A stretch of 64,000 bases of DNA from the NCBI GenBank assembly GCA_016207165.1, contig JACQQD010000011.1, positions 1 through 64,000 of the forward strand, read 5' to 3'. Source of the DNA: Candidatus Micrarchaeota archaeon. GTDB lineage: Archaea > Micrarchaeota > Micrarchaeia > Norongarragalinales > Norongarragalinaceae. This document shows positions 36,174 to 53,722 of this stretch, in pieces. Below the pieces are notes generated by a model, which had not been told where the DNA came from, searched no databases, and saw nothing but the letters and a program-made list of their open reading frames with translations. The position numbers and the translations under genes were made by a program. Every line of letters starts with the position of its first letter. Position 1 is the first letter of the stretch.

Positions 36174-36175
36174 GA

Positions 36176-36211
36176 TGTACTTTTTTGTACTACAAAGATA
36201 TAAATAGTGCA
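36176..36211. promoter_or_regulatory. TRP-box-like operator and divergent TATA box
   Basis: TGTACT-N4-TGTACT (36176-36191), TATAAATA (36199-36206), AGTGCA (36206-36211). Confidence 0.7.
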
Positions 36212-36237
36212 CTGGGTAAGGATGGAACCGGTTAGAT

Positions 36238-36318
36238 ATGGGAGTCGGTTTTCTTTGGCCACAGCCAAACCAAGTCGCAGTCGCTGGACACGAAACTGGA
36301 TCCGCTGCAGGCCTTTGA
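36238..36318 (+). other. 26-codon uORF overlapping the trpE 5' end (MGVGFLWPQ...GL*)
   Basis: First ATG at a plausible distance from the TATA box; contains CTT TGG and ends CTT TGA; out of frame with trpE. Confidence 0.55.
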
Positions 36319-37579: not shown

Positions 37580-38154
37580 AGAAAAAAATGAAACTATTGG
37601 TTTTGGATAACTTCGACTCGTTCACCTACAACCTCGTCCAACTCTTCCAAGCGCAAGGGGCGGATTGCCTGGTGTTTAGAAACAACGCATCCATGCACCA
37701 AATCGAGAAACTGCGGCCTGACGCCGTCTTGATTTCGCCGGGACCTGGAACCGTGGAGAACCCCAAGGACTTCGGCGTGTGCGCGCACGTTTTGAAGGCG
37801 CTGGACGTGCCGCAGTTGGGCGTGTGCTTGGGGCACCAGGGCTTGGCCTACGTCTTCGGAGGAAAAATCAGGCGGGACACACCGGTACACGGCAAGACGA
37901 GTTTGGTCACGCACAACGGCAAAGACGTTTTCAAGAACGTCAAGAACCCTTTTCGGGCCGCCCGCTACCACTCGCTGGTCGTGGACGCAAAAACCGTGCC
38001 GGATTGTCTGGAAGTCACGGCGCACGGGCCCAATCAGGAAATCATGGGGCTAAAGCATAAAGAAAAGCCGTTGTTTGGCGTGCAATTCCACCCCGAGTCC
38101 TTCATCACCGAAGACGGAGTAAAAATGGCGAGAAACTTTTTGGACTTGATTTGA
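37576..38154 (+). CDS. trpG: anthranilate synthase component II
   Basis: DNFDSFTYNL, ISPGPG, GVCLGHQ, RYHSL, QFHPES. Confidence 0.95.
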   Translation: MKKKMKLLVLDNFDSFTYNLVQLFQAQGADCLVFRNNASMHQIEKLRPDAVLISPGPGTVENPKDFGVCAHVLKALDVPQLGVCLGHQGLAYVFGGKIRRDTPVHGKTSLVTHNGKDVFKNVKNPFRAARYHSLVVDAKTVPDCLEVTAHGPNQEIMGLKHKEKPLFGVQFHPESFITEDGVKMARNFLDLI

Positions 38155-39147
38155 ATGGATGAATTGATCACCGCATTGGAAACCCGGGAAAACCTTTCCG
38201 AAAACCAATCGGAACAGCTGGCCGACGGGTTCCTGGACAACACGATGAAGCATGAAGACATCAAGCGCGTGCTTTTGGCGTTGAACGCCAAAGGGCCTTG
38301 CGTTGAAGAAGTCGTGGGCTTTGCGAAAAGCATGCGGAAGCATTCCATCAAAATCCACCCTCAACGCCAAGTCGTGGACACGTGCGGCACCGGAGGCGAC
38401 GGCGCCAGTACGTTTAACATTTCGACTACCGCGGCGTTCATTGTCGCGGCCTGCGGCCAGGCCGTTGCCAAACACGGCAACAAAAGCGTTTCAAGCCAAA
38501 GCGGGTCCGCCGACGTCTTGGATGCGCTTGGATTGAACATCCACGTGCCGCCTGAAAAAACGCAGGACATGATTGACGAAACGGATTTTGGCTTCCTCTT
38601 TGCGCCGTTGTACCATCCGGCCATGAAGCACGTGGCGCCGGTGAGAAAAGAGTTGGGCGTGAAAACCATCTTCAATCTATTGGGCCCGCTGACGAACCCA
38701 GCCAGCGCCCAATTTCAAGTCATCGGCGCGTACGATGCCAAAACGCAGGCGTTGCTGGCGGAAGCCGTAAAACGGTTGGGCACGCAACGGACGTTGGTGG
38801 TGAAAGGCGAGAAGCTAGACGAAGCCGGTTTTGGTAAAACCCAGGTCTTGGATGTGACCAAAAAGGGCATTGATGCATTTGAATTGCATTCCGAGGAATT
38901 CGGGCTGAAAGGCGCCGTTGCGGATTTAGTGGTTGAAAACGCCAAGCAAAGCGCCTTGTTTGTCCGCCAGGCGCTGCAGGATGACGGGGTCAAAAGCAGG
39001 GTGGCGGCACTTAACGCCGCGTTGGCGTTGTATGCGGCCGGGAAGGCGGAAACCGTTCAAGAGGGGTTCACCAAAGCCAAAAACGTCTTGAATTCGGGCC
39101 GCGCCATGTTCAAACTCCAGGAAGCCGTGTCGGTGTCCAAGCTATGA
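38155..39147 (+). CDS. trpD: anthranilate phosphoribosyltransferase
   Basis: DTCGTGGDG..TFNIST, KHGN, GSAD, NLLGPLTNP. Confidence 0.95.
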   Translation: MDELITALETRENLSENQSEQLADGFLDNTMKHEDIKRVLLALNAKGPCVEEVVGFAKSMRKHSIKIHPQRQVVDTCGTGGDGASTFNISTTAAFIVAACGQAVAKHGNKSVSSQSGSADVLDALGLNIHVPPEKTQDMIDETDFGFLFAPLYHPAMKHVAPVRKELGVKTIFNLLGPLTNPASAQFQVIGAYDAKTQALLAEAVKRLGTQRTLVVKGEKLDEAGFGKTQVLDVTKKGIDAFELHSEEFGLKGAVADLVVENAKQSALFVRQALQDDGVKSRVAALNAALALYAAGKAETVQEGFTKAKNVLNSGRAMFKLQEAVSVSKL

Positions 39148-39902
39148 CGTTTTTGGACGACGTGTTGCAAGAAGTTGAAGAAAACGTTTTGACGGGTTAC
39201 TACAAGAAGCGTCCGGGAAAACCCGTGAATGCAGGACAAGTCTCTCTGGAAGGACGGCTTGAATCCTCGTTTACGATCATCGCGGAAATCAAGCCCCAAT
39301 CCCCCACGCACGGAACGCTTTTTGAAGGCGACGCGGCCGAGTTGGCGGAAACCTACAAAAAAAACGGCGCGGGAGCCATTAGCGTGTTGTGCGAGCCGAA
39401 CCGTTTTGGCGGTTCGCTGGAAAACCTCTCCAAAGCCAAGAAAACGGGTTTGCCGGTTCTAGCCAAGGACTTCGTCCTTTCGTTCCATCAATTGGACGCG
39501 TACAAGGCGTTTGGCGCGGACGCCGTGCTTCTGATCCACGAATTGTTTGACGTGAAAAAAACCGAGGGAAGTCTTGACGAATTCATTGCCGCCGCCCACG
39601 AAAAAAAGTTGGAAGTCGTCTTGGAAGTGCATGCCCGGCACGGCTTGGAGGAAGCGGTGCAGACAAAAGCGGACGTGATTGGCATCAACAACCGGGACCT
39701 GTACACCCTGGCGCTAAACCCCTTGCATTACCAAAACGTGTTAGGCGACATTCAACCGGACCGGCCCATCATTGCCGAAAGCGGGTTTAAGTCCAAAGAA
39801 GACCTGGAAATAGCCAAAGCCGTGGGCATCAACGGCGTGCTGGTGGGAACGGCGCTCCTGGAAAGCGGCGACCCCGGCAAATCATTGAGGGAATTGTTGT
39901 GA
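39144..39902 (+). CDS. trpC: indole-3-glycerol-phosphate synthase
   Basis: [32 protein letters not shown]. Confidence 0.95.
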
Positions 39903-41035
39903 CGTACTTCGGCTCGTTTGGCGGCATGTACGTGCCGGAAACCTTGGTCGCGCCGCTGCAGCGCATCCAGCGCGAGTACGCCAAACGCAAAAACGATTCC
40001 CTGTTTCAAACCAAGTTCCAGCAACTGTTGCGCGAATACGCGGGAAGGCCTTCGCCCCTGTATTTCGCGGAAAAACTGTCGAAAGCCTACGGCTGCAAGA
40101 TTTACCTGAAACGCGAGGACCAGCTTTACACCGGCTCGCACAAAATCAACAACGCCTTGGGCCAAAGCCTGTTTGCCAAATCACTTGGCGCAGAGCGGGT
40201 GATTGCAGAAACTGGGGCGGGACAGCATGGCGTGGCAACAGCCACCGCGTGCGCGCTGTTGGGATTGAAGTGCGTGGTGTACATGGGGTCGGAAGACGTC
40301 AAGCGCCAGTACTTGAACGTTCAACGCATGAAGTTGCTTGGAGCGGAAGTTCGGCCCGTGGATTCGGGGTCCAAGACGCTGAAAGACGCCATCAACGAAG
40401 CGCTTCGCGACTGGGTGGCACAACCGGAAAGCTATTACTTGATTGGTTCCGTCGTTGGGCCGTCGCCTTACCCTGAAATGGTGCGGGACTTTCAACGCGT
40501 GATTGGCGACGAGACCCGAGAACAAGTCATGCAACGCGAGGGAAAGCTTCCCGACGTGTTGGTGGCGTGCGTGGGTGGCGGCTCGAATGCCATGGGCTTG
40601 TTTTATCCGTTCAAAGACGAGCATACCGTCAAGAAAATCGGGGTGGAAGCCTACGGCGCCGCATCGCTTTGCTTTGGAAAAACAGGCGTGCTGCACGGCG
40701 CGAAAACCAAGGTGCTCCAAGACGCCGACGGACAAATCATGGAGACGCACAGCATTTCAGCGGGGTTGGACTACTCGGCCGTAGGCCCCGAACATGCATT
40801 CTTTCAGGAAACCGGGATCGCGGACTACTCGGCGGTCAACGACGAACAGGCACTCGCCGCATTCCGGGAATTATCCATTCAAGAAGGCATCATTCCGGCG
40901 TTGGAATCCGCGCACGCCGTAGCCAAAGGCCTGGATTTGGCGCAGATCCTGGACAAGGACCAAATCATGGTCATCAACTTGAGCGGCCGCGGCGACAAAG
41001 ATACCCATGCCCTTGAAGCGCTTGGACTGAAATGA
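39899..41035 (+). CDS. trpB: tryptophan synthase beta chain
   Basis: [46 protein letters not shown]. Confidence 0.97.
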
Positions 41036-41093
41036 AACGAAAAAATCGGAAATAGATTGGGCGACGAAAAAAATCAAAAAAAAATAAGAAAAA

Positions 41094-41852
41094 ATGGTTT
41101 TGAAGAAAATGAAGTTCACGCGTCTTTTTGAATCCAAGAAATTCGTCTTTTTGCCCTACGTGTGCTTGGGCTACCCCACCCTTCAAGAAAGCATCCAAAT
41201 CGTGAAAACCCTGGAACCCTTTGCCGACGGGTTCGAACTGGGCATACCGTTCTCCGACCCGGTGGCGGACGGCCCAGTGCTTCAAGCCGCCACGCAAGCC
41301 GCATTGAAAAACGGCTTCCACGTAACAGACGCGTTTCGGGCCATCAGGGAAATCCGTTCGTTCACGCAAAAGCCTCTGGCCGTCATGACGTACCTCAATC
41401 CGGTGCTGGCCTACGGCTTGGAAAAATTCGCTTCCGATGCGCAAAACGCGGGCGCGGATGCCGTCATTGTGCCGGATTCGCCCATGGAGGAAAACGATTC
41501 GCTTCAGGCCGCGTGTTCCGGGAAACTGGAAGTGCCGCTGTTCGTTTCCCCTACCACGCCGGATTCGCGGGCCGCCAAGATTTCGGAAAAAGCGCAAGGC
41601 TTCGTGTACGGCATTGCCGTGAAAGGCGTGACTGGCGCACGAGAAAACGCCGCAAAGGACATGCAGGCGTTAGTCGGCAAAGTCAAAAACAAGCCCGTCG
41701 CCATCGGTTTCGGCATTTCGAAAGCCGAACACGTCCAAGCCGTAAAAAATTCAGGCGCGAGAGGATTCATCGTGGGCAGCCAAATCGTGAAAGCGTACAA
41801 CGAATCCAAACTGGACGGGGTAAAACAATTCGCAAAATCCCTATCGCCATAG
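41094..41852 (+). CDS. trpA: tryptophan synthase alpha chain
   Basis: ELGIPFSDPVADGP, MTYLN, GVTGAR, GFGIS. Confidence 0.96.
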   Translation: MVLKKMKFTRLFESKKFVFLPYVCLGYPTLQESIQIVKTLEPFADGFELGIPFSDPVADGPVLQAATQAALKNGFHVTDAFRAIREIRSFTQKPLAVMTYLNPVLAYGLEKFASDAQNAGADAVIVPDSPMEENDSLQAACSGKLEVPLFVSPTTPDSRAAKISEKAQGFVYGIAVKGVTGARENAAKDMQALVGKVKNKPVAIGFGISKAEHVQAVKNSGARGFIVGSQIVKAYNESKLDGVKQFAKSLSP

Positions 41853-42304: not shown

Positions 42305-42931
42305 CTACTTTGTTTGGGAAAGAATCTTGGCTTCGGCTTTGCGCAAGTGGGAGAGGAACACGGTTTTGGGAATGCCCAACAGTTTTGCGGCGCGCGTGGC
42401 GGTGATGCGGCGGGGCCACGCGTAATAGCCGAGGTGCCTTGCCGCTTGGAAGGCTTCGCGCTGCTTGGCCGTGAGGCTCTCGGTAAAACCGGTTTGCTTG
42501 AGGTAACGCACCAACACGGGAAAGCGCTTTTGGAGGTGGGCCAAGACGCGGGCCAGGTTTTGTTTTTCGGAGGACGCCAGCGTCCAGACTTCAAAGAGTC
42601 CCTCAAAGCGGGTGGGGGCCGCGGAAAAACAGTGGTTGTCAAAAAAGACGTCGGAAAAGTGCTCTAGGTTCCGGGTGGCTTTGGTCAGCACGCGGAGAAA
42701 AAGCGCTTCACCACGCGAGAGTTCCTCCACGCGCGACACGTCGCCTCTTTTCTTGAAGTAAGCCAGAACCGCATCGAAAAATTCAGGCGGCCCGTCCACG
42801 CGCACGACGTGGGCGACCTGTTTTTTGATCCAACGGCAGTCCACGGACGAAAAAGTGTTGCGAGGAAAACGAGGGGACACGTCGGAGCCCCAACACCCTC
42901 GGTGTTCGATGGAGAACTCGGCTTGAAACAT
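42305..42931 (-). CDS. bacterio-opsin-activator-type (HTH_10) regulator
   Basis: LTAKQREA..AA..LGYY.WPRRIT...AKLLGI.KT...HLRKAEAK. Confidence 0.88.
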   Translation of the reverse strand: MFQAEFSIEHRGCWGSDVSPRFPRNTFSSVDCRWIKKQVAHVVRVDGPPEFFDAVLAYFKKRGDVSRVEELSRGEALFLRVLTKATRNLEHFSDVFFDNHCFSAAPTRFEGLFEVWTLASSEKQNLARVLAHLQKRFPVLVRYLKQTGFTESLTAKQREAFQAARHLGYYAWPRRITATRAAKLLGIPKTVFLSHLRKAEAKILSQTK

Positions 42932-43002
42932 GAAAAGGCAATGGGAAGCGCGGGATTTAAAAACAGGGAACGGGACAAGAAAGTAAGCAAGGGTTAGCTC
43001 CC

Positions 43003-43068
43003 ATGACTGAAGTTAAAGCAAACCAACAGAATTGGTCGTTTGGCTTTAGCTTTGGCTATTTTGGCTGA
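43003..43068 (+). CDS. putative aromatic-amino-acid leader peptide MTEVKANQQNWSFGFSFGYFG
   Basis: ATG..TGA; 6 of the last 11 codons are Trp/Phe/Tyr; lies directly upstream of the aro operon. Confidence 0.75.
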   Translation: MTEVKANQQNWSFGFSFGYFG

Positions 43069-43212
43069 CTTTGGGAAAAACCCTTGCAAGCTGTTTTTGG
43101 TTGAAGTTCTCCGGCTTGCAGCCGGCGGCGGGTTTTTCCCTTGACGTTCAATCGGGAGGGAAGGGAAATGACGAAGGTAAATAAAAGCAAAGACGCGGTG
43201 AAAAAATCGTGA
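43069..43212 (+). promoter_or_regulatory. putative attenuator RNA with alternative helices
   Basis: GGGAAAAACCC (43073-83) pairs with GGGTTTTTCCC (43130-40); TTTCCCTT (43135-42) alternatively pairs with AAGGGAAA (43161-68). Confidence 0.65.
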
Positions 43213-44219
43213 TCATTGTTTTCGAGCCTAAGGCCACCGAAGCCCAAGTCCAGCACGTGTTCGAGCGGCTCCAGGAATGGGGTTTCACGCCGGTACTGCA
43301 GGAAGGCGAACAGATTTCCATTGCGATTACCGGCGACTCCTCGGCACTAAGAACCCAAACCCTGGAGGCCTTTGACGGCGTGCAGAAAGCCGTCCGCCTC
43401 AAGGAAGCCTACAAGCTGGTGTCCAAGGAATTCAAGCCCGAAGGCACCGTCATTGAGCTTGGGGACGTGAAAATCGGCGGCAAAAAATTGTTGATGATTG
43501 CCGGGCCCTGCAGCGTGGAAACCGAGGAACAATACGTGTCCACCGCGAGAGCCGTCAAAAAAGCGGGGGCCCAGGTGTTGCGCGCCGGCATCTACAAGCC
43601 AAGAACCTCGCCCTACGACTTTCAAGGCGTGGGGGAACGGGGTTTTCCGTGGCTGAAAAAAGCCAAGGACGAAACCGGACTGCCGCTTTGCGCCGAAGTC
43701 TTGGACGTGGCCTCCATTGCCAAGACCAAGGACCACGTGGACATGTACCAAGTCGGCGCCCGCAACATGCAGAACTACGACCTGCTTAGAGCATTGGGAA
43801 AAGGCGGCAAGCCCGTGCTGCTTAAGCGAGGCTTGTCCGGCACCATCAAGGAACTCTTGTTGGCCGCGGAATACATCATGTCGTCTGGCAACCACGACGT
43901 GATGCTATGCGAGCGAGGCATTCGCACCTACGAAACGGCTACCCGATTCACGTTGGATATCGGAGCCGTTCCCGTGCTGCACCACGACACGCATTTGCCC
44001 GTCATCGTGGACCCGTCGCACCCGGCAGGGAAACGGTCTTTGGTTGGATCCATGGCGAAAGCCGGCGTGGCCGCGGGAGCGGACGGCTTGATCGTGGAAG
44101 TGCACCCCGAACCCGAGAAAGCCTGGTCCGACGCGGCCCAGCAGTTGACGTTCGACCAATTCGAACAGTTAATGGCGGAATTAAAGCCCGTGGCGCAGGC
44201 CGTGGGACGGGAGCTCTGA
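43209..44219 (+). CDS. aroF: DAHP synthase type I-beta with N-terminal ACT-like domain
   Basis: IAGPCSVE, KPRTSPY, GARNMQN, LKRG, CERGIRT, DPSH, EVH. Confidence 0.95.
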   Translation: MIIVFEPKATEAQVQHVFERLQEWGFTPVLQEGEQISIAITGDSSALRTQTLEAFDGVQKAVRLKEAYKLVSKEFKPEGTVIELGDVKIGGKKLLMIAGPCSVETEEQYVSTARAVKKAGAQVLRAGIYKPRTSPYDFQGVGERGFPWLKKAKDETGLPLCAEVLDVASIAKTKDHVDMYQVGARNMQNYDLLRALGKGGKPVLLKRGLSGTIKELLLAAEYIMSSGNHDVMLCERGIRTYETATRFTLDIGAVPVLHHDTHLPVIVDPSHPAGKRSLVGSMAKAGVAAGADGLIVEVHPEPEKAWSDAAQQLTFDQFEQLMAELKPVAQAVGREL

Positions 44220-44220
44220 C

Positions 44221-45264
44221 ATGCAGACGATGAGCCTGGACTTGGGGAAAAGCCGCGTGCTGGTGGGAAGCGGAGCGTTAACCCAAGTCAAGGCCTTGGC
44301 GGAAACGGACGGCAAAGCGTTCATCGCGCACCAAAAAGCCACCAAAGCGTACGCCGAAACGTTAGCCAAACAAATGGACGGCAAGACGCACCTCGTTCAA
44401 ATGCCGGACGGCGAGGCGGCCAAGACACTTGACCAGATTGCCGCCTTGTACCAGGAGGCGCTTGATTTCGGGTTGGAGCGCAGCGACACCGTTTTCGCGG
44501 TAGGCGGCGGGTGCCTGGGGGATGCCGTGGGATTCACGGCCGCCACGTACATGCGGGGCGTTTCGTTGATCCACGTGCCGACGACGTTGTTGGCGCAAGT
44601 GGATTCCGCCATCGGAGGAAAAGTCGGCATCAATTTCGCCGGCACCAAGAACATGGTCGGCGCCTTCCATTTTCCAAAACTCGTGGTCTGCGACATTGAC
44701 ACCCTGGAGAGCTTGCCGGGCGAACAGGTCAAAAACGGTTTGGCGGAAGTCGTCAAGTACGGCTTGATTTTGGACGAGGACTTGTTTTCCTTCGTGGAAG
44801 AAAACAAAGCGGGCCTGCTGCAGAAAAAACCGGAACGGCTTCAGCACGTGGTGTCGCAAAGCGTGCAAATCAAGGGAAAAGTCGTGGCCGAAGACGAGCG
44901 GGAAGCCGGAGAAAGAATGAAACTCAATTACGGCCACACCTTGGGGCACGGAATCGAGGCGGTGACGGCAATGCAGCACGGCAAAGCCATTTCCATCGGC
45001 ATGCATGCCGCCGGCATCTTGGCCGTCAAGCGCGGCCTCTTGAAGCCGAAGGACTTGGATCGGCAAAACCAGCTGCTTATTGACGTGGGATTGCCCTTGA
45101 CGGCCAGGTTTGACGTAAGCGCCGTCATGGAAAAAGTCTCCCACGACAAGAAGAAAACTCAAGGCAAACTGCGCATGGTTTTGCTGGACGCCATTGGCTC
45201 GTGTGCGGTGCATGACGTGAGCGACGACGAGGCCCGAAAAGCCTTGGAAGAGGTATTGAAATGA
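44221..45264 (+). CDS. aroB: 3-dehydroquinate synthase
   Basis: GGG.LGD, PTTLLAQVDSAIGGK, LNYGHTLGH, HGKAISIG. Confidence 0.95.
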   Translation: MQTMSLDLGKSRVLVGSGALTQVKALAETDGKAFIAHQKATKAYAETLAKQMDGKTHLVQMPDGEAAKTLDQIAALYQEALDFGLERSDTVFAVGGGCLGDAVGFTAATYMRGVSLIHVPTTLLAQVDSAIGGKVGINFAGTKNMVGAFHFPKLVVCDIDTLESLPGEQVKNGLAEVVKYGLILDEDLFSFVEENKAGLLQKKPERLQHVVSQSVQIKGKVVAEDEREAGERMKLNYGHTLGHGIEAVTAMQHGKAISIGMHAAGILAVKRGLLKPKDLDRQNQLLIDVGLPLTARFDVSAVMEKVSHDKKKTQGKLRMVLLDAIGSCAVHDVSDDEARKALEEVLK

Positions 45265-45938
45265 TTCTGGTTCCCATCGTGGCAAGAACGGTGACGGAAG
45301 CCAAGCGCCAGCTTGCATCCGCGAAGAAAGCGGGAGCCGACGGCGTGGAAATACGGCTGGATGCGTTTGAACACGTCACCTCCGACGACGTACTGGAAAT
45401 GGTAAAAAATAGTCGGCTGCCGGTGCTGGCCACTTGCCGCACCAAGAACGAAGGCGGATTCACGAGAAAGACCAGCGATGAACGAAAAAAACTGTTGTTG
45501 GCGGCCATCCAGGCCAAAGCGGCTATGGTGGACGTGGAATTGTCCAGCCCGCCGGCGTTTCGAAACGCCGTCAAGGCGGCATGCCGCAAAAACAAATGCA
45601 GGCTCGTCGTCTCCAAGCACGATTTTGACCGGACGCCGGAGCCCAAAACCTTGAATCAATGGGTCAAGGAGGCGTTGAAAGCCGGAGACATCGCGAAAAT
45701 CGTGTGCTTGGCCCACCACACCGTCGACCTGCTACGCCTGTTGGACCTCGTCAAGCACGGAAACGGCAACGTGGTGGCCTTTGCGATGGGGGAACAAAAC
45801 AAGCAGAGCCGCGTGCTAAGCCTCTTGTACGGCGCGCCGTTTGGCTTTGCCGCCTTGCACCGCGAAAGCGCGCCCGGACAGATTCCACTGAAGCAGATGC
45901 GGTTGGCGTTGGAGGCCACCAAAGAGTGGGTCGCATGA
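45261..45938 (+). CDS. aroD: type I 3-dehydroquinate dehydratase
   Basis: EIRLD, TCR..EGG, SKHDF..TP, IAKI, AMG, SAPGQ. Confidence 0.92.
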   Translation: MILVPIVARTVTEAKRQLASAKKAGADGVEIRLDAFEHVTSDDVLEMVKNSRLPVLATCRTKNEGGFTRKTSDERKKLLLAAIQAKAAMVDVELSSPPAFRNAVKAACRKNKCRLVVSKHDFDRTPEPKTLNQWVKEALKAGDIAKIVCLAHHTVDLLRLLDLVKHGNGNVVAFAMGEQNKQSRVLSLLYGAPFGFAALHRESAPGQIPLKQMRLALEATKEWVA

Positions 45939-46759
45939 TTACCGCGAAAACCAAGTTGCTGGCCATCATCGGAGACCCCGTCCAGCACTCGCTTTCTCCA
46001 GTTATGCGCAACGCGTCGTTTGAGGCGTTGGGTTTGGATTACGTCTACGTCGCCCTGAACGTCAAGAAAGAAGAGTTGGAAACGGCTGTGGCCGGCATGC
46101 AGGTTCTCGGGTTTCGGGGTTTCAACGCCACCATGCCGCACAAAAAAGCGCTCTGCGGCTTGGTGGATGAAATGGATGAGTTCGCCAAATTCTGCGACGC
46201 CGTCAATACCGTGGACATCAACGAGACGCTTTACGGCTACAACACAGACGGACCCGGAGCCCTGGAGGCGCTCAAGCAAGCGCAAGCCGATATTTCCAAG
46301 TCCGTGGTGATTGGCGCCGGTGGGGCTGGACGAGCAATTGCCTACGCGTTGGCCAAAGGGGGATCGGAAGTAACGATTTTGAATCGCGACGAACGCAAGG
46401 CGGACGCCGTGGCTGAAAAAATCCGGAAGGCGGGACTCAAGGCGAAAAGCGGCGGGCTCAACGAATTGGAAGCCCAACTGAAAACCGCGTCGACGCTGTG
46501 CCACGCCACGCCGGTGGGCATGCACGGCCATGAAAGCGTGATTCCGGCGAAACGGCTCCACCCGGAACTGACGGTCATGGATGCCGTGTACAAGACCACG
46601 GAGACGAAACTCATTGCCGACGCAAAAAAAGCGGGGTGCCAGATTGTTCCGGGATGGAAGATGCTCTTGCACCAAGGCCAGTTGAGCTTTGAACGCTGGA
46701 CCGGAAAAAAAGCGCCCATGGACGTCATGGAGCAAGCCCTCAAAGAGGCCATGAAATGA
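45935..46759 (+). CDS. aroE: shikimate dehydrogenase
   Basis: GDPVQHSLSP, NATMPHK, AVNT, NTD, GAGGAGRA, MLLHQG; ATG overlapping the aroD stop. Confidence 0.94.
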   Translation: MITAKTKLLAIIGDPVQHSLSPVMRNASFEALGLDYVYVALNVKKEELETAVAGMQVLGFRGFNATMPHKKALCGLVDEMDEFAKFCDAVNTVDINETLYGYNTDGPGALEALKQAQADISKSVVIGAGGAGRAIAYALAKGGSEVTILNRDERKADAVAEKIRKAGLKAKSGGLNELEAQLKTASTLCHATPVGMHGHESVIPAKRLHPELTVMDAVYKTTETKLIADAKKAGCQIVPGWKMLLHQGQLSFERWTGKKAPMDVMEQALKEAMK

Positions 46760-47256
46760 ACGTCGTGCTCATCGGATTCATGGGCTCCGGCAAAACCAGC
46801 GTAGGGAAAGCCCTGGCCAGAAAAAAGGAAATGGATTTCCTGGACATGGACGAAGAAATCGAAAAACAGGAAGGCCGGAAAATTTCGGACATCGTAAACG
46901 AAAACGGAATGGATTTCTTTCGCGACAAGGAATCCGTGTTGCTTGAAGAAATCAGCCGGAAAAACCCGGAAAACACGGTGGTGGCCACCGGCGGCGGCGT
47001 CATCTTGTCCCAAGAAAATCGCGCGATTCTCAAAAAACTTGGACGCGTGGTTTGGTTGGACGTCAGCCCCCTCCACGCGCATGAAAGGACAAGAAACGAC
47101 GACAACCGGCCTTTGCTGAACCATCCCAACCGCCGGGCCGTCATCGAGGAACTCCTCCGAAAAAGAAAGCCGTTTTACCAGGAAGCCGAACTGCACATCC
47201 AAGTCGACGGAAAGACGCCGGAACAAGTCGCAAAAGAAATCGAGGGAAAACTGTGA
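46756..47256 (+). CDS. aroK: shikimate kinase (bacterial P-loop type)
   Basis: GFMGSGKT, DMD, FR..E, ATGGG, RPLL, R.PFY. Confidence 0.94.
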   Translation: MNVVLIGFMGSGKTSVGKALARKKEMDFLDMDEEIEKQEGRKISDIVNENGMDFFRDKESVLLEEISRKNPENTVVATGGGVILSQENRAILKKLGRVVWLDVSPLHAHERTRNDDNRPLLNHPNRRAVIEELLRKRKPFYQEAELHIQVDGKTPEQVAKEIEGKL

Positions 47257-48485
47257 AAATCATTCCCGGAAGCCTGGAAGGCGCCGTGCACGCGCCGGCA
47301 TCCAAAAGCCACACCCACCGCGCCTTGATCTGCGCGGCGCTGGCCAAAGGATCGTCGCAAATCAAGGGAGCCTTGGTCTCCGATGACACGCTTGCCACGG
47401 CGCGCGGTCTAAGCGTTTTGGGCGCGAAATTGGACAAGGACCACGTGGATGGAACGTACACCTTGGAAAAAGGCGGGACACTGCAATGCCAGGAATCCGG
47501 GTCCACCCTGCGCTTTTTGCTACCCGTCGCGTGCCTCTCCAAACAATCCTGCACGCTGGTGGGGACCGGCCAGTTGCCGCACCGACCCGTCAAACCGTTG
47601 GCCAACGCGCTCAATGCGTTGGGTGCGGACGTGCAAACCCAGAACGGCGGACTGCCTGCACTCACGCAACCCGGATTGAAAGGCGGCCGCTGCACCCTTC
47701 CAGGACACCTCAGTTCGCAGTTTGTCTCCGGGTTATTGTTCGCCCTGCCGCTGTGCAAAAATGATTCCACCCTCAACATCACAGGCCCACTTCAGTCAAA
47801 GCCGTACGCGGACTTGACGAAGCAAACCATCCAAGCCTTCGGCGTTGACGTGAAGGAAGAAGACGGAAAATACCACGTGCCCGGCAACCAACAATACCAG
47901 CCCCAGAAAATCCAAGTCGAAGGCGACTGGTCGTCCGCCGCGTTCTGGATGGTGGCCGGAGCCGTTGGAGGCGACGTCCACGTCACGGGCCTTGAAAGCA
48001 AGTCGCTTCAAGGCGACAAGGCGGTTGCGGCGATACTGGAAAAAATGGGCGCCGACGTGCAAGAAACCGCCAACGGCGTGCGCGTCACGCAAAGCCCGCT
48101 TCAAGGCGTGGAAGTTGACGTATCCAACATCCCGGATTTGTTGCCCATCCTCAGCGTGGCGGCGTGCTTTGCGCAAGGAACCACCCGGTTTTACAACGCG
48201 GAGCGGCTGCGCTTAAAAGAAAGCGACCGATTGGGCGGAATGGCCGAAGAGCTTTCCGCCATGGGCGTTACCCTCCAGGAAAAACAAGACGAACTGGTCA
48301 TCCGAGGCGGCAAAGCGTTGAAGGGAACAACCCTAAAAAGTCACGGCGACCACCGCATTGCCATGAGCCTGGTCATCGCCGCACTCCACGCGAAAGGGGA
48401 AAGCGAGTTGGACGACGCGGACTGCGTCGCCAAGTCCTACCCCGGATTTTTCAGTGATTTAAGCAAGTTGAGGAGAACGACGTGA
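47253..48485 (+). CDS. aroA: EPSP synthase
   Basis: SKSHTHR, ESGSTLR, SSQFVSG, EGDWSSA, RLKESDR, DHRIAM, KSYP. Confidence 0.95.
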   Translation: MKIIPGSLEGAVHAPASKSHTHRALICAALAKGSSQIKGALVSDDTLATARGLSVLGAKLDKDHVDGTYTLEKGGTLQCQESGSTLRFLLPVACLSKQSCTLVGTGQLPHRPVKPLANALNALGADVQTQNGGLPALTQPGLKGGRCTLPGHLSSQFVSGLLFALPLCKNDSTLNITGPLQSKPYADLTKQTIQAFGVDVKEEDGKYHVPGNQQYQPQKIQVEGDWSSAAFWMVAGAVGGDVHVTGLESKSLQGDKAVAAILEKMGADVQETANGVRVTQSPLQGVEVDVSNIPDLLPILSVAACFAQGTTRFYNAERLRLKESDRLGGMAEELSAMGVTLQEKQDELVIRGGKALKGTTLKSHGDHRIAMSLVIAALHAKGESELDDADCVAKSYPGFFSDLSKLRRTT

Positions 48486-49570
48486 ACCAGCATTACGGCA
48501 AAACATTTGAAGTGCAACTCGCCGGCGAATCCCATGGCCTTGGCGTGGGATGCATCATCCAGGGATGCCCAGCGGGACTGCCGCTGACGGAAGGCGACAT
48601 CCAAAACGAGTTGGACAAGCGAAAACCAGGACAGACGTTAACCACGCCCCGAAAAGAAGAAGACAAAGTGCAAATCAAGTCGGGCGTGTTTGAAGGAAAA
48701 ACCACGGGCGCCCCGATTCTTTTGTGGATCGACAACCACGACGTGCAATCCCAATCCTACGGGAAACTCAACGAAGTCCCCCGACCAGGGCACGCCGACG
48801 TGACGGCCGCCGAAAAATACGGGGGATTCAACGACTACCGGGGCAGCGGCGCGTTTTCCGCGCGGCTGACCGCCGCCTTGGTGGCCGCGGGCGCCATTGC
48901 CAAAAAACTCCTGAAACGCCAAGGCATCGAGATTTTGGGCCACGTCCAGCAATTGCACGACGTGAAAGTCACCGACGCCACCGACGAGGCTATCCGGAAA
49001 AACGCGTATTCCAACCCGGTGCGGTGCGCGGACCCCAAAGCCGCCAAAGCCATGCAACGGCGCTTGGACGAAGCGCTTTTGGACGGGGACTCGCTGGGGG
49101 CCGTAATCGAGTGCCGAGTCCTGAACGTTCCAAGCGGAGTGGGGGAGCCGAGGGCCCAATCCGTGGAAAGCGTGATTGGATCCAACTGTTTGGCGCTTCC
49201 AGCAGTCAAGGGCGTGGAATTCGGGGAAGGCTTTGCCGCCGCAACCATGAAAGGCAGCCAACACAACGACGCCTACCTGGAACAAGACGGCGGCATCGTC
49301 ACGAAGACCAACCACGCCGGCGGCACCCTCGGCGGCATCACCACCGGCATGCCGATCGTGTTCCGCGTCGCGTTCAAGCCCACGTCCAGCATCGCCAAAA
49401 CCCAGACCACCCTGAACGTCGCCACCAAAAAACAAGAAAAACTCAACGTCGGCGGACGACACGACCCCTGCGTCGCGCTTCGAGCGGTTCCCATCGTTCA
49501 AGCCATGGCGGCATTAAGCATCGTGGACTTAATGCTCCAAGCGCAAAAAATCCCGCGGGTGCTGAAATGA
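48482..49570 (+). CDS. aroC: chorismate synthase
   Basis: GESHG, GKTTGAP, RPGHAD, SARLTA, NHAGGTLGGI, KPTSSI, GRHDPC. Confidence 0.96.
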   Translation: MNQHYGKTFEVQLAGESHGLGVGCIIQGCPAGLPLTEGDIQNELDKRKPGQTLTTPRKEEDKVQIKSGVFEGKTTGAPILLWIDNHDVQSQSYGKLNEVPRPGHADVTAAEKYGGFNDYRGSGAFSARLTAALVAAGAIAKKLLKRQGIEILGHVQQLHDVKVTDATDEAIRKNAYSNPVRCADPKAAKAMQRRLDEALLDGDSLGAVIECRVLNVPSGVGEPRAQSVESVIGSNCLALPAVKGVEFGEGFAAATMKGSQHNDAYLEQDGGIVTKTNHAGGTLGGITTGMPIVFRVAFKPTSSIAKTQTTLNVATKKQEKLNVGGRHDPCVALRAVPIVQAMAALSIVDLMLQAQKIPRVLK

Positions 49571-50667
49571 CGCTGGAAAAAAGCCGCGGACGCATCGACG
49601 AAATCGACGAACAGATCACGAAACTCTTGGCCGAACGCGTGAACGTCGCCAAACGCACCCGCAAGGAAAAACAAGTCCAAGGCCAAGGGGTGACGGACGC
49701 CTCCCGCGAGAAGAACGTCTTGGAGCACGTCGAACGCGTGGCCAAAGAACATGGACTGGACCCCAACTTGGCGCTGCGCGTCTTTGAGGAAATCATGGCC
49801 GCGTCCAAGGCCCAGCAATACATGGACCACGACGCGCCCACCACGGAACGCCTTGACATTCAAACCGTGGCCTTCCAAGGCGAACGCGGCGCGTACAGCG
49901 AAGAGGCGCTTCGGCAAATCCTTCCAAACGCCGACCCCGTGCCTCGGCCGGAACTTGGCGACGTGTTTGACGAAGTGCAAAAAGGAAAAGCGGATGCCGG
50001 ACTGGTGCCTATTGAGAACAGTACGGAAGGCAGCATCAACTACACGTACGATCTTTTGTTGGACTCCCAATTGGGCATCGCCGGCGAGACGTTCTTGCGC
50101 GTGCGTCATTGCTTGCTGGCCAAATCAGGCACGAAAACGCGGGAGGGACTCCACGTGTACTCGCATCCCCAGGCGTTGGCCCAATGCCGGGATTTTTTGA
50201 TTGGCAAAAAACTGCAGCCCGTGCAATACTACGACACCGCCGGCGCCGCCAAAGCCATTGCCGAAGGCAAAATCCAAGGGGCCGCCATTGCCTCCAAGAC
50301 GGCGGCCGAACACTACGGGTTGGACGTGTTGGCGGAAGGCATTGAAGACAACCGCAACAACTACACGCGATTTATACTGATTTCCAAGAACACGCCGACG
50401 CCCACCGACTCGGACAAAACCTCCATCGTTTTTAGCACGCACCACCGGCCCGGCGCCTTGTTTGAAGTCATGAAAGTCTTTGCCAAAGCCGACATCAACC
50501 TGACCAAACTGGAGTCGCGGCCCACCAAGCAAAAACCCTGGGAGTACTTCTTCTATATGGATTTCGAGGGCACGGCATCCAAAGCCCCGTACCAGCAAGC
50601 CCTGGAAAACATCAAGCCCCACACGCTGTTCCTGAAGGTGCTGGGCAGCTATCCCCGGTCGCGGTGA
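49567..50667 (+). CDS. pheA: chorismate mutase/prephenate dehydratase (P-protein)
   Basis: RGRIDEID..ITKLLAER, GERGAYSE, PIENSTEG, SHPQAL.QC, NYTRF, ESRP, LGSYP. Confidence 0.95.
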   Translation: MTLEKSRGRIDEIDEQITKLLAERVNVAKRTRKEKQVQGQGVTDASREKNVLEHVERVAKEHGLDPNLALRVFEEIMAASKAQQYMDHDAPTTERLDIQTVAFQGERGAYSEEALRQILPNADPVPRPELGDVFDEVQKGKADAGLVPIENSTEGSINYTYDLLLDSQLGIAGETFLRVRHCLLAKSGTKTREGLHVYSHPQALAQCRDFLIGKKLQPVQYYDTAGAAKAIAEGKIQGAAIASKTAAEHYGLDVLAEGIEDNRNNYTRFILISKNTPTPTDSDKTSIVFSTHHRPGALFEVMKVFAKADINLTKLESRPTKQKPWEYFFYMDFEGTASKAPYQQALENIKPHTLFLKVLGSYPRSR

Positions 50668-50735
50668 AATCCAAAACCTTGAAAAGCCCCAAAGCGCCCT
50701 AAAAACAAGGATTGCAAAACCGGTGGGAAAAAGTC

Positions 50736-51812
50736 ATGGCCTTGACGCTGTACCAATTGTCGGAAAAAATCTTCGAACTTGAAAAACAGGGAAAAAAGAT
50801 TCTGCGTTTGAACATTGGCGACCCGGGCCTAGTCACCCCCGACGCACTACGCAACGCCGCCAAAAAGTCGTTGGACGCCGGAGAAACACGGTACGCGTCG
50901 GCCCAAGGCGAAAAGCCGTTGTTGGACAAAATCGCTTCGACGCACGGCGCGGAGGCGCAAAACGTTTCCGTCACCCCAGGAAGCAAGTGGGCGTGCTACG
51001 CCGTCCTCCAATTGATGCTGAAACCCGGGGACAACATCGTCACCCCGGCGCCGTTTTGGTCGGCGTACGAATTAATGGCCAAAAGCTTCGGAGCCGAATG
51101 CCGACTGGTTAAAACGGAAATGGAGGACCACTTCCAATTCGACCCTCAAGCCTTGTTCGAATTGGTGGACGCCAAGACGAAAGTCATCGTGCTGAACGAC
51201 CCGTCCAACCCCACGTCCACGGAATACGGCGCTGAAAGCGTGAAAGCCGTGCTGGAATACGCGCAAGACCAAAAAATCTTGGTGTTGCTGGACGAAGCAT
51301 ACCGCGACTTGTCGTTCAAGAAAAATGAGTTGATGACGTACCAGGAGGGATTGGCGATCACCACCACGTTTTCCAAAGCGTACTGCATGAGCGGCTGGCG
51401 CGCCGGCTACCTGGTCGCCGACGCCGACGTCATCAAAAAAGTCGTTTCCCTTAACCAAATCACGTTCACCAACGTGCCTCGCTTCACCCAAGCCGCCATG
51501 CTGGAGGGGCTGACCCGCAGAGAGGAAGTCACGGGAGCCACGCGCAACGAATGCAAAAAGCGCTTGGCGGCTTGCGAACAAGTCTTTAAAGGAATTCAAT
51601 ACGCGAGGCCGGACGCAGGATTCTACTTCTTCCCCAAAGTCTCCGACGGCGACTCGATCACGGAAAAAATCTTGGAACAAGGCATTGCCGTCACGCCGGG
51701 CTCCGTCTTCGGCGGGTACAAGCAATTCATCCGGTTGTCGCTCTCGCACCCCCTGGAAAAGCTCACGCCCGCCTTGCAGACGATCCGCCGCGTGATTGAC
51801 GAGAACGCGTGA
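50736..51812 (+). CDS. class I aminotransferase (probably aromatic)
   Basis: LNIGDP, NDPSNPT, LDEAY, FSKAYCMSGWRAG; position within the aro operon. Confidence 0.88.
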   Translation: MALTLYQLSEKIFELEKQGKKILRLNIGDPGLVTPDALRNAAKKSLDAGETRYASAQGEKPLLDKIASTHGAEAQNVSVTPGSKWACYAVLQLMLKPGDNIVTPAPFWSAYELMAKSFGAECRLVKTEMEDHFQFDPQALFELVDAKTKVIVLNDPSNPTSTEYGAESVKAVLEYAQDQKILVLLDEAYRDLSFKKNELMTYQEGLAITTTFSKAYCMSGWRAGYLVADADVIKKVVSLNQITFTNVPRFTQAAMLEGLTRREEVTGATRNECKKRLAACEQVFKGIQYARPDAGFYFFPKVSDGDSITEKILEQGIAVTPGSVFGGYKQFIRLSLSHPLEKLTPALQTIRRVIDENA

Positions 51813-51843
51813 CGGTTCCCATGAAGAAGAAGAAGGGAAAACA

Positions 51844-52572
51844 ATGAAAGCACTTGGCCTCGTTGGATTTGGCCAATTCGGAAAATTCGCCGCCCGACAC
51901 CTCAAGGACCACTTCGACGTCACGGTGTCTGACGAGAAAGACGTCTCGGAATCCGCAAGAAAAATGGGTTTGAAGGCCGGCCCCCTCAAGCAAGCCGCGC
52001 AAAGCGACGTCGTGGTCCTGGCGGTTCCCGTGTCCAAACTGCGTTCCGTATTGAAAGCCATAGCGCCCCACCTCAAAAAAGGCGCGTGGGTGGCCGACGT
52101 AGGCTCAGTGAAGATCGAGCCCGTGGAATGGATGGAAAAAATCCTTCCGAAAACCGTGAACGTCATCGGCACGCACCCCATTTTCGGGCCTCAAAGCGGG
52201 AGAAACGGCATTCAAGGCTTACCCATCATCGTATGCCCCGTGCGCGGGGATTCCGCCAAAGTGACAGCCTTTCTGGAAGGTACACTCAAACTCCACGTCG
52301 TCCAATCCACCCCCGAAAAACACGACGAAGACATGGCCTACAGCCAAGCGTTGGCCCATTTCGTGGGCCAGGCGCTCAAAGAAATGGATTTGCCGGACGT
52401 CAAGGAAAAAGCCGCCACGTATGAGGCCCTCTTGGCCATCCGGGACCTCGTGAAATACGACTCCCCGGAGTTGTTTGAAACCATTCAAAAAGAAAACCCG
52501 CACGCCGAAACGGTCCGCCAACGCTTCATGGACCAACTTGAAGAAATCCACAAGCGGTTGCGTAAAGCTTAA
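51844..52572 (+). CDS. tyrA: prephenate/arogenate dehydrogenase
   Basis: GFGQFG, DVGSVK, THPIFGP, HDEDMAYSQALAH. Confidence 0.92.
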   Translation: MKALGLVGFGQFGKFAARHLKDHFDVTVSDEKDVSESARKMGLKAGPLKQAAQSDVVVLAVPVSKLRSVLKAIAPHLKKGAWVADVGSVKIEPVEWMEKILPKTVNVIGTHPIFGPQSGRNGIQGLPIIVCPVRGDSAKVTAFLEGTLKLHVVQSTPEKHDEDMAYSQALAHFVGQALKEMDLPDVKEKAATYEALLAIRDLVKYDSPELFETIQKENPHAETVRQRFMDQLEEIHKRLRKA

Positions 52573-52597
52573 ACAACGCCTCCAACGTAACGAATCC

Positions 52598-53722
52598 ATG
52601 AAAAAAGAATTGGACCCGTGGTCCACGCAACTCATTTCGGACTACGACTACTTGTTCAAAGAATTCGGGTTGCAGCACTTCGACGCCAAACTCCAAAAAA
52701 AACTCTCGGGCCACCGCCTTTACCGAAGGGGCATCGTGTTTGCGCACCGGGACTTTGACCAATTCGTGCAAGCCTCGAAAAACAAACAGCCGACGGCCGT
52801 CATGACGGGCATCAAGCCCTCCGGGGAATTCCATTTGGGCTCCAAAATGACGGCCGAAGAAATCATTTTCCTCCAGAAACAGTTCAACAGCCGCTTGTTT
52901 TACGCCATTGCCGACGTGGAAGCCTACGCCGACAACGGGCTGAATTTCCAGCAAAGCCACCAAAACGCGGTGGACAACGTCGCCGACTTGCTGGCCCTGG
53001 GCCTGGACCCCGAAAAGACGTTCGTCTACAAGCAATCCGAGAACATGCACGTCAACAACCTCGCCAACATTTTCGCCCGCAAAACCACGCTCAACACCCT
53101 GGAAGCCTTGTACGGCCACCAGAACCTGGCCCTGTATTTGGCGGTGCTCACGCAAGCCGGCGACATTCTGGCCCCTCAACTGGACGCCTTTGACGGCCCC
53201 AAACATACGGTGGTTCCCGTAGGCATCGACCAAGACCCCCACATCCGCTTCACCCGCGACTTGTCTGCCAAGTTCAAAGACGAATTCGGGTTCATCACGC
53301 CTGCGGCCACCTTCCACAAGTTCTTTCGAGCGTTAAACGGCGAGACGAAGATGTCCAAACGCGACCCCCTGAACATCATGACGCTCAACGACGACAACGT
53401 ACTGCTCAAAAAGAAGTTGGCCAACGCGCTGACCGGCGGACGCGCCACCGCCGAAGAGCAAAGGCGGTTGGGCGCCAACCCGTACGTCTGCGTCGTGTTC
53501 GAGTTGATGAAGTACCACTTCTACGACGACGACTCCGCGCTCAAGGACATGGAACAGGACTGCAAGAGCGGAAAACTGCTTTGCGGCGAGTGCAAGGCCA
53601 TCCGCCTCAAACACATCCAAGAATACTACAAGAAGCACCAGGAAAAAAAGAAAAAAGCGCGCGCCCAAGCCGAACAAATCCTGGAACAACCCATCGCGTT
53701 CAAGAAGAAAAAGTCCAACTAA
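52598..53722 (+). CDS. trpS: tryptophanyl-tRNA synthetase (archaeal type)
   Basis: RRGIVFAHRD, TGIKPSGEFHLG, GIDQDPH, KMSK, TGGR, CGECK. Confidence 0.95.
   Translation: MKKELDPWSTQLISDYDYLFKEFGLQHFDAKLQKKLSGHRLYRRGIVFAHRDFDQFVQASKNKQPTAVMTGIKPSGEFHLGSKMTAEEIIFLQKQFNSRLFYAIADVEAYADNGLNFQQSHQNAVDNVADLLALGLDPEKTFVYKQSENMHVNNLANIFARKTTLNTLEALYGHQNLALYLAVLTQAGDILAPQLDAFDGPKHTVVPVGIDQDPHIRFTRDLSAKFKDEFGFITPAATFHKFFRALNGETKMSKRDPLNIMTLNDDNVLLKKKLANALTGGRATAEEQRRLGANPYVCVVFELMKYHFYDDDSALKDMEQDCKSGKLLCGECKAIRLKHIQEYYKKHQEKKKKARAQAEQILEQPIAFKKKKSN

Follow-up and report, generated by a model that had tools for sequence, protein, structure and literature searches.

A conserved aromatic-rich leader ahead of archaeal aromatic amino-acid operons is a probable ribosome-mediated attenuator

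Leader-peptide attenuation is a textbook mechanism of bacteria that needs coupled transcription and translation together with hairpin terminators. In the trpL and pheL leaders of E. coli, segments 1-4 form mutually exclusive helices, with a 3:4 hairpin plus U-run as the intrinsic terminator, and a ribosome that terminates at the stop codon of the leader open reading frame (ORF) sits over the 5' strand of the alternative helix. Archaea have a eukaryotic-type RNA polymerase, for which U-tracts are termination signals whether or not the factor aCPSF1/FttA takes part, and archaeal trp operons are known to be repressed by DNA-binding proteins of the TrpY type. We analysed a 64,000-nucleotide (nt) stretch of DNA from a Candidatus Micrarchaeota archaeon (GenBank assembly GCA_016207165.1, contig JACQQD010000011.1, positions 1 to 64,000, forward strand; hereafter the window), in which an upstream ORF rich in aromatic codons (uORF1), followed by a set of potential RNA helices, precedes an operon for aromatic amino-acid synthesis headed by a DAHP synthase (DAHPS) gene. 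Judged from sequence and its conservation, this leader is probably a ribosome-mediated (leader-peptide) attenuator of the operon. The first-pass annotation of the window had proposed the same, and the proposal gains from the presence of a comparable uORF at 48 of 76 related loci and from covariation of the long helix that follows it.

The nearest described system is aroR of Corynebacterium glutamicum, a leader peptide with the residues Phe-Tyr-Phe located before aroF (Neshat et al. 2014, as treated in passages of PMC11802643); according to these passages, ribosome stalling under aromatic limitation raises expression. Both aroR, as outlined there, and the leader in the window are short ORFs with Phe and Tyr codons directly before a DAHPS-led operon. 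However, aroR is bacterial and is described in the same passages as acting by transcription attenuation with bacterial RNA polymerase, whereas the archaeal leader has no hairpin-plus-U-run terminator, carries a conserved block F-S-F-S/G-Y and holds its U-tract inside the 3' arm of the hairpin. The E. coli leaders trpL and pheL likewise have the codons of the sensed amino acid clustered near the end of the leader ORF, although, in the part of PMC11802643 that deals with them, each senses one amino acid and uses an intrinsic terminator, whereas the archaeal leader has codons for three. In the archaeal case the aromatic block also pairs with the start region of its own uORF and not with the next segment. 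Enrichment of the leader ORF in codons for the end products of the operon, a hallmark of bacterial attenuators, was indeed observed (six of the final 11 codons here, and the 48 related loci); an intrinsic terminator was not found in the window, and neither the host nor its RNA polymerase is bacterial. Because the defining terminator was tested for and not found, we place the leader outside the terminator-based trpL/pheL/aroR family.

Bacterial genes for type I-beta DAHPS can also be preceded by aromatic-rich uORFs, at a distance of 100-400 nt; of 80 loci among the matches listed, about 20 have one, including L022, L042, L050, L060, L061, L064, L067, L068, L078, L086, L087 and L092, from metagenome-assembled genomes of Acidobacteriota, Planctomycetota and Bacillota. 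These leaders share the downstream enzyme family with the archaeal one (50-54% identity among the matches listed), but their peptides are unrelated in sequence, for example rich in W, F, Y and R. In L060, from Bryobacterales, a canonical GC-rich hairpin with a T-run follows the aromatic uORF. That bacterial DAHPS loci use this principle speaks for the attenuator reading of the archaeal leader.

uORF1 occupies 43003..43068 on the + strand (ATG at 43003, TGA at 43066-43068) and encodes in 21 codons the peptide MTEVKANQQNWSFGFSFGYFG, in which one W, four F and one Y account for six of the last 11 codons. We confirmed the start, stop, peptide and aromatic-rich end that the annotation had given for this ORF. 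An AGGG lies 9 nt ahead of its ATG, and a TATA-like box, TTTAAAAA (42956..42963, +), located 40-47 nt upstream of the start, is presumably the archaeal promoter of the leader transcript. The annotation had also read the genes downstream as an operon running from aroF to pheA, tyrA and trpS, and Pfam and NCBIfam scans agreed with it from the DAHPS through the Trp-tRNA ligase. The genes at 43209..53722 (+) are, in order, a DAHP synthase with an N-terminal ferredoxin-like (FL) domain, aroB, aroD, aroE, aroK, aroA, aroC, a fusion of chorismate mutase, prephenate dehydratase and ACT domain (CM-PDT-ACT), an aminotransferase, prephenate dehydrogenase and Trp-tRNA ligase. The first long gene, which starts with GTG at 43209, encodes the DAHPS, of type I-beta; the products of the downstream genes are Phe, Tyr and chorismate. 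The gene order and the short or overlapping junctions suggest that these genes form one operon.

Given its codon content, uORF1 would most likely serve as an aromatic codon sensor. When all small ATG-initiated ORFs of 8-45 codons in the 1.27 Mb genome were screened for at least six aromatic residues per 11-residue window, only 19 of 6235 qualified, uORF1 among them, which corresponds arithmetically to about 0.002 such ORFs expected in any given 300-nt stretch. Sensing of all three aromatic amino acids had been suggested for this ORF. The F and Y codons are consistent with this; for Trp it is no more than possible, since the window has only one W codon and W is found in 36 of the 48 related uORFs, compared with 48 for F and 47 for Y, and the neighbouring trp operon has a TrpY-family regulator and lacks a leader.

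DAHPS genes are present in 17 of 68 genomes of the host's order and in 79 of 401 sampled genomes of its class, which makes up practically the whole phylum and has assemblies of 0.4-1.8 Mb. The 76 DAHPS-upstream regions considered comprise 16 from the order, L007 and 59 from the class; one 103-nt region was dropped as too short. A strict scan of 75 regions (44.6 kb) for ORFs with an ATG start, 8-45 codons and at least six aromatic residues in 11 detected a uORF on the sense strand in 44 regions and on the antisense strand in two. Removal of the doubtful L143 and L163 and addition of six others with five aromatic residues in 11 but with the common motif and context (L005, L011, L113, L116, L120 and L133) gave 48 credible leaders. 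Within the order, 14 of the 17 genomes with DAHPS have the leader, and none was found in G030, G043 and G059. A phylum-wide search gained no lineages beyond the class.

The 48 uORFs are 14-38 codons long, and 380 of their 1180 residues are aromatic; examples are MNQRKNQWSYPTFGFSFGYYQ (G002), MNQARLNRTYRAFWFSFGYFG (G001), MAGTEARWNFGYSFSFGY (G009), MASEPCSAAVTAQNSWRFGYFYFYFA (G040) and, at the class level, MKITEVAKTNVFSFGFFSFSYWY. The last aromatic codon stands 1-3 codons ahead of the stop in 39 of them, the motif S-F-[SG]-[YF] is present in 40, and Phe is encoded by both TTT (104) and TTC (121). An ATG and an in-frame stop are kept, an SD-like (Shine-Dalgarno-like) GTGGTT precedes the ATG, and a TATA-like motif is located 20-80 nt upstream of the ATG in 37 leaders. 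A short Phe/Tyr-rich ORF, usually with one Trp codon, is thus conserved upstream of the first aromatic-pathway gene across this archaeal phylum or class, and the search in related archaea that the annotation had called for came out in its favour.

Downstream of uORF1 in the window, the RNA can adopt alternative helices, and we found every helix element that the annotation had named. Strand A (43073..43091, +), the 5' arm of a long hairpin, begins 5 nt past the stop codon and consists of GGGAAAAACCC (43073-83) and TTGCAAGC; its homologue in class-level leaders is the arm (C)AGGAAAACCRC. Strand B (43114..43140, +), the 3' arm, is made up of GCTTGCA (43114-20) and the U-tract arm GGGTTTTTCCC (43130-40). 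The pairing between GGGAAAAACCC and GGGTTTTTCCC is perfect, and TGCAAGC (43085-91) is complementary to GCTTGCA. A local hairpin, CCGGCT-TGC-AGCCGG (43111..43125, +), excludes the inner part of the long one. Strand C (43154..43170, +) holds an SD-like GGGAGG (43154-59), the segment AAGGGAAA (43161-68) and the ATG of a second small ORF, uORF2 (43168..43212, +; 14 codons, MTKVNKSKDAVKKS), whose TGA (43210-12) overlaps the DAHPS GTG (43209-11) as GTGA. TTTCCCTT (43135-42) in strand B is complementary to AAGGGAAA, the last base of which is the A of the uORF2 ATG. We further identified a helix absent from the earlier annotation, helix 0 (43003..43059, +), formed between the uORF1 start region, ATGACTGAAGTTAAAGC (43003-19), and the aromatic block, GCTTTAGCTTTGGCTAT (43043-59); it has a z score of 3.9 in the window and is present in the minimum free energy fold of the free state. 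T5 runs are located in the loop of the long hairpin (43094..43098, +) and at 43133-37, and because runs of T5 or longer occur genome-wide at 2.8 per strand-kb, two of them within 72 nt are only mildly unusual.

Folding under ribosome-footprint constraints, as the annotation had suggested, separated the alternatives. With 43051-78 masked as by a ribosome at the stop codon, 43136-42 paired with 43155-66, the SD-like region before uORF2; with masks mimicking stalls at 43033, 43045 or 43057, the long hairpin formed and the SD-like region was largely open. The helices may be mutually exclusive: A:B is backed by covariation, and the alternatives at 43111-25 and 43135-42/43161-68 (B:C) are predicted by these folds and have analogues in the window's own genus, but across the class the partners are heterogeneous.

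Comparison among relatives provided the strongest evidence for A:B. An ungapped helix search, with the 5' arm sought between -24 and +22 of the uORF stop, gave a mean z of 2.84 against dinucleotide shuffles, with z of at least 2 in 28 of 48 loci and at least 3 in 25. Across 19 aligned class-level leaders, 86.2% of the cells were paired and seven of the 15 pairs had changed on both sides, a combination of pairing and covariation that none of 500 shuffles reached; slid registers gave 41-55%. The arms can be wholly different between subfamilies while their position is kept, as with GGAAAACC/GGTTTTCC versus GCCAACA/TGTTGGC, and subgroups at the same position have the pairs CAGGAAAACCAC/GTGGTTTTCCTG, TCGGAAAACCG/CGGTTTTTCGA, AGTGAAAAACCGC/GTGGTTTTTCGCT and GCCAACACCAGAACG/CGTTTTTGTGTTGGC. 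The arms are also polar: a run of T4 or longer is found in the 3' arm at 22 of 29 loci and in the 5' arm at one, so that class-level leaders carry a U-tract inside the 3' arm. In the host's own genus the inner helix covaries (TGCAAGC/GCTTGCA in the window, GCAAAC/GTTTGC in G002, TGCAAC/GTTGCA in G001). Relatives hence conserve, with compensatory changes, a stop-anchored hairpin whose 5' arm is A-rich and whose 3' arm is U-rich, and the covarying helices that the annotation had proposed to seek in related genomes are present.

Other elements of the window have counterparts as well. The local-hairpin sequence TTGCAGCC is conserved in three own-genus genomes, with the variant TTGAGGCC in G009; U-rich and purine-rich complements resembling B:C stand ahead of the next start codon in G001, G002 and family f7, and in f7 a compact hairpin that differs in sequence adjoins the stop, as judged by eye. 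Helix 0 exceeds a z of 2 in 23 of 48 loci when the 5' segment is shuffled. It pairs the nucleotides AGCTTTrGCTAT with ..GCTAAAGC.., the frequent A-K-A codons following the uORF ATG, which accounts for the near-invariance of these nucleotides and for the use of AGC for Ser. A plain MAFFT alignment placed the arms out of register, so that RNAalifold returned only three trivial pairs from it, and we therefore used narrower alignments and a named structure. An enrichment of U-runs after the uORF was considered as a further signal and set aside, as it was not clearly above that of A-runs. Separately, we noticed in class-level loci (e.g. L123, L129, L131, L132 and L139) a block TGAC..TAGWGGTATTGAT located 10-25 nt past the 3' arm. 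An ATG always precedes the block in frame, so that it would read M-x-x-(R/S)-G-I-D. The block is similar to the 5' arm in same-sense orientation, and for L123 and L133 pairing with the free 3' arm is predicted; its possible roles include those of a second small ORF, an alternative pairing partner and an SD-like site.

A covariance model, R1, was built from the 19 class-level leaders of other families, without the host's order. Its best match in the host genome was the window itself at 43032-43145 (24.5 bits, E 0.011), followed by a weak match at G000:C12:105315-105374 (-) (17.5 bits, E 0.46). Across 151 genomes of the class, R1 recovered the known DAHPS leaders and two new loci. The uORF MKACQKSSRNFFYYSFSFWYA in G116 (L169, C60) precedes a DeoC-family aldolase and DHQ synthase II (DHQS-II), and MRNAKVCISGNSFFFSFSYY in G155 (L170, C33) precedes aspartate kinase (AK) and aspartate-semialdehyde dehydrogenase, as assigned by Pfam, with DHQ synthase II further along the contig. 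Both belong to the DKFP route, an archaeal entry to aromatic synthesis that starts from aspartate semialdehyde. Among 15 further DHQS-II loci, two have an AK-...-aldolase-DHQS-II operon that begins with a uORF and a helix next to its stop (G302, L173, C5; G184, L176, C12), one is cut by a contig end, and the remaining loci have no such uORF within 4.5 kb. An aromatic uORF thus heads DKFP-route operons in four genomes. With the same leader before DAHPS and before DKFP-route operons, there are three kinds of first gene that have only the pathway in common, and the leader is tied to the aromatic pathway and not to one gene. The weak R1 matches L168, L171 and L172 were rejected as chance, being inside or antisense to ORFs and without a uORF.

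How the leader might work is suggested by the position of arm A relative to the stop codon. At loci with significant helices, the start of arm A lies anywhere from 21 nt upstream to 4 nt downstream of the end of the stop codon. We assumed for archaea a ribosome footprint of about 12 nt downstream of the A-site, as established for bacteria and eukaryotes, so a ribosome at the stop would cover much of A and one stalled on most of the aromatic codons would not. The annotation had envisaged just this geometry, and it fits most loci. By analogy, the layout would be the classical one in which the helix formed upon stalling is the ON structure. When charged Phe- and Tyr-tRNA (and perhaps Trp-tRNA) is scarce, the ribosome would stall on the aromatic codons upstream of A; A would then pair with the emerging B, hiding the U-tract, and the next translation start in C (GGGAGG..AAGGGAAATG, 43154-70) would stay open, such that the operon is expressed. 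Under good supply the ribosome would reach the stop and cover A from 43073 onward, leaving B single-stranded in the OFF state. In the window, free B could pair with C and mask the start of uORF2. It would also leave the U-tract exposed on ribosome-free RNA, a potential signal for archaeal termination through oligo-U and aCPSF1/FttA. For the class as a whole, our preferred output is premature termination, or processing, at the U-rich strand once it is exposed; in the window's own genus, start-site masking would come on top of this. By closing the uORF once the pioneer round is over, helix 0 would favour a one-shot, co-transcriptional decision. A comparable feature is known from the E. coli trp leader.

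This scheme has partial parallels elsewhere. In erm/cat attenuation the position of the ribosome decides the fold, and in tnaC-tnaA attenuation a rut site is masked. Translational attenuation of the erm and cat resistance genes is a subject of PMC5499644. As in the window, a leader ORF is followed there by a hairpin involving the next start region; the stall at erm and cat is drug-induced, whereas here it would depend on tRNA supply, and the 3' arm of the window's hairpin is not itself an SD. The Rho-dependent attenuation of tnaC-tnaA, as set out in part of PMC8429421, is alike in that the termination factor needs accessible, ribosome-free RNA past the leader ORF. Archaeal aCPSF1/FttA recognises U-tracts, according to sections of PMC8716108, PMC11616081 and PMC13681488, and its dependence on terminator U-tracts is described in sections of PMC8716108 and of 10.1101/2021.05.26.445813; arm B is such a U-tract, which A:B would hide. 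A link between aCPSF1/FttA and this leader is conjectural. A stronger version of the proposal would see here the first archaeal family of ribosome-mediated amino-acid attenuators, phylum-wide in small-genome archaea and controlling both the bacterial-type and the DKFP entries, in which an A-rich strand hides a U-tract upon stalling and the U-tract otherwise recruits aCPSF1/FttA to ribosome-free RNA. We regard this version as possible but doubtful. If true, it would be for archaea what Rho-dependent attenuation is for bacteria, and would offer a natural way to study archaeal transcription-translation coupling.

Several observations weigh against an attenuator. Thermodynamically the window itself is unconvincing: for the fold of 43066-43215 the z is -1.35 and the energy unexceptional, and the stop-anchored helix has a z of 1.9 and was reached by three of 60 dinucleotide shuffles. 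A scan for bacterial-type terminators found none in the window, giving three sites compared with 1.2 +/- 1.1 in shuffles; the sole terminator-like match near the local hairpin (43113-43134) is weak, G-U-rich and not above shuffles. The case consequently rests on conservation in relatives and not on the window alone. The uORF is missing from 28 of the 76 DAHPS loci, which include most full-length FL-type DAHPS loci of two other families and several contig ends, and in L005-L011 and L100-L106, from other families of the host's order, a simple helix anchored at the stop scores no better than shuffles do (z -0.9 to 1.7). The U-tracts of class-level arm B are mostly just U4, the predicted partners of free arm B are heterogeneous across the class, and after the stop U-runs are hardly commoner than A-runs (T5 or longer in 36 of 48 loci versus A5 or longer in 29). 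In three close relatives, an AT-rich box, TTGATATAAAAATC, stands between hairpin and gene as a possible internal promoter. A frame test counted 303 aromatic codons in frame versus 24 and 78 out of frame; this test is circular because the uORFs were picked by aromatic content. Finally, related genomes are non-independent samples.

Could the same sensor have a purely translational output of the erm/cat kind, with A:B as the OFF state that hides a start near arm B and a stalled ribosome melting it? Some class-level leaders point this way. Many have an arm B (GTGGTTTTCCTGATG) that resembles the uORF's own start region (GTGGTT, spacer, ATG), with a small ORF starting -3 to +6 nt from the end of the arm; the arm of L160 and the next ORF's SD, GGGAGGTGA, overlap; and in the subgroup with peptides ending in ...RYQENH* arm A lies within the uORF, so that every translating ribosome must open A. 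L160 accordingly has an SD or start inside the hairpin or very close to it, and the GTGGTTTTCCTGATG group may have one too; the window does not, as 27 nt separate the end of arm B from the next ATG, that of uORF2, and arm B is not the SD of uORF2. Moreover, in the window and at most loci the aromatic codons are too far upstream for such melting: a ribosome stalled on them would reach no further into arm A than its first bases, while one terminating at the stop codon does cover the arm. Closure of the uORF by helix 0 after the first round would also fit a one-shot decision better than continuous monitoring. We therefore consider a purely translational output unlikely. Less likely in our view is that the uORF region constitutes a separate small transcript, a small RNA or a micropeptide gene ending at the U-runs, and that DAHPS has its own promoter. 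The U-runs that follow the uORF in 36 of 48 loci would suit such a transcript, as would the AT-rich boxes of L113, L139 and L164 (TTGATATAAAAATC, about 45 nt ahead of DAHPS) and, in the window, GGTAAATAAAAGC about 27 nt before the DAHPS GTG. However, the internal box is not TATA-like in most loci (L116, L118, L123, L129, L131 and L132), and L005 has only 42 nt from the uORF stop to the DAHPS start, too few to hold a promoter. One would not expect an independent gene to stay attached to three kinds of first gene, and the peptide is conserved solely in its aromatic block.

A translation-independent operator in RNA or DNA, with an incidental reading frame, would account for the conservation of AGCTTTrGCTAT at the nucleotide level, for that of helices 0 and 1, and for the choice of AGC for almost every Ser in the conserved block (88 AGC versus 64 other Ser codons in the 48 uORFs). 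The operator could be a ligand-binding RNA or the binding site of a regulator, for example of the HTH_10 (bacterio-opsin-activator-type) DNA-binding protein encoded at 42305-42931 (-), divergent from and upstream of the leader. This HTH_10 neighbour was not seen at the relatives' loci examined, however, and trpA is upstream of the leader in its place in G001 and G002. Aromatic codons outside the block vary in number, position and synonymous form while the frame, ATG and stop are kept, the stop stands in a fixed relation to arm A, and an Rfam scan of the 64 kb window returned one tRNA only, with no leader family at gathering score. Rfam includes bacterial amino-acid leader families. We consider an operator of this kind slightly less likely still. 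That uORF1 is a chance ORF in a T-rich intergenic region has in its favour the statistical weakness of the window taken alone; it is refuted by the comparative data, namely the 44 sense versus two antisense uORFs in 75 regions, the genome-wide frequency of 19 in 6235 and the covariation of the helix, and we regard its probability as negligible.

The attenuator thus remains the preferred reading of the leader, and it suggests that archaea, like bacteria, may be able to sense amino-acid supply through ribosome stalling. In the literature searched we found no description of an archaeal leader-peptide attenuator, although an older report is possible as subscription journals were poorly covered, and no published archaeal example of Rho-like, aCPSF1/FttA-based leader regulation. 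The terms attenuation, attenuator and leader peptide are absent from a 2021 review of archaeal coupling (PMC8116511), neither 'attenuat' nor 'leader peptide' occurs in PMC13675443, and PMC1262725 and PMC2965389 mention archaea in passing only. A 2025 perspective (PMC13681488) states, in the part concerned, that factor-dependent termination in coupled complexes implies regulatory signals still to be found. The novelty would lie in a ribosome-mediated, attenuator-like leader in a domain where none is established. With about 50 variants and built-in compensatory mutations, the family would be a conserved natural test case for the readout of ribosome position by archaeal transcription or translation. 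It would give evidence that small-genome archaea that retain aromatic synthesis regulate it by tRNA charging, and would give archaeal genetics a portable amino-acid-responsive part.

The origin and function of uORF2 are best approached through the related loci. In G001 (L012:1211-1475) a short DAHPS paralogue has its SD and its ATG at the equivalent position; this gene lies between the leader and the FL-type DAHPS and runs into the latter with an ATGA overlap. In G009 (L004), uORF2 repeats the first seven DAHPS residues, MIVVFEE. It is probable that uORF2 of the window is a deletion remnant of the short DAHPS paralogue, and it might act as a coupling ORF that passes regulated initiation to DAHPS through the GTGA overlap. 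The ATGA overlap between uORF2 stop and DAHPS start seen at several loci is not evidence by itself, because DAHPS starts with ATG AAA.

The host genome is archaeal. Its assembly (1.27 Mb, 12 contigs, 90% complete) encodes TBP, ribosomal protein S6e and aCPSF1/FttA (TIGR03675, 831 bits), and a TrpY-family match lies within the window about 7 kb upstream of the aro leader. The latter gene (35667-36212, -) scored 157 bits with NCBIfam TrpY_fam, for which the curated cut-off is 180, and also matched ACT weakly. It adjoins the divergent trpEGDCBA operon (36239-41852), and the intergenic region 36170-36238 contains TGTAC repeats and a TATA-like ATATAAATA. We checked this trp operon for a leader ORF, and none was present. 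Like the aro leader, TrpY regulates archaeal aromatic synthesis, but it does so as a protein on DNA and with no leader ORF. With a TrpY-family regulator and no leader at trp, two regulatory styles for aromatic synthesis would thus lie 7 kb apart. Other leader peptides were sought in the same genome among intergenic small ORFs with single-residue runs, and both candidates were rejected: of C9:98392 and C9:161629, one is inside an Lrp/AsnC-like gene and the other is ahead of an AbrB-like ORF. At the far end of the aro operon, the Trp-tRNA ligase gene (52475-53722, +) is the last gene, so that the synthetase of one sensed amino acid may be co-regulated. Elsewhere in the window, the ORF at 14898-16400 (-) shows a weak likeness to DNA-translocating ATPases of the CedB/VirB4/HerA type (E 8e-18, far under the cut-off).

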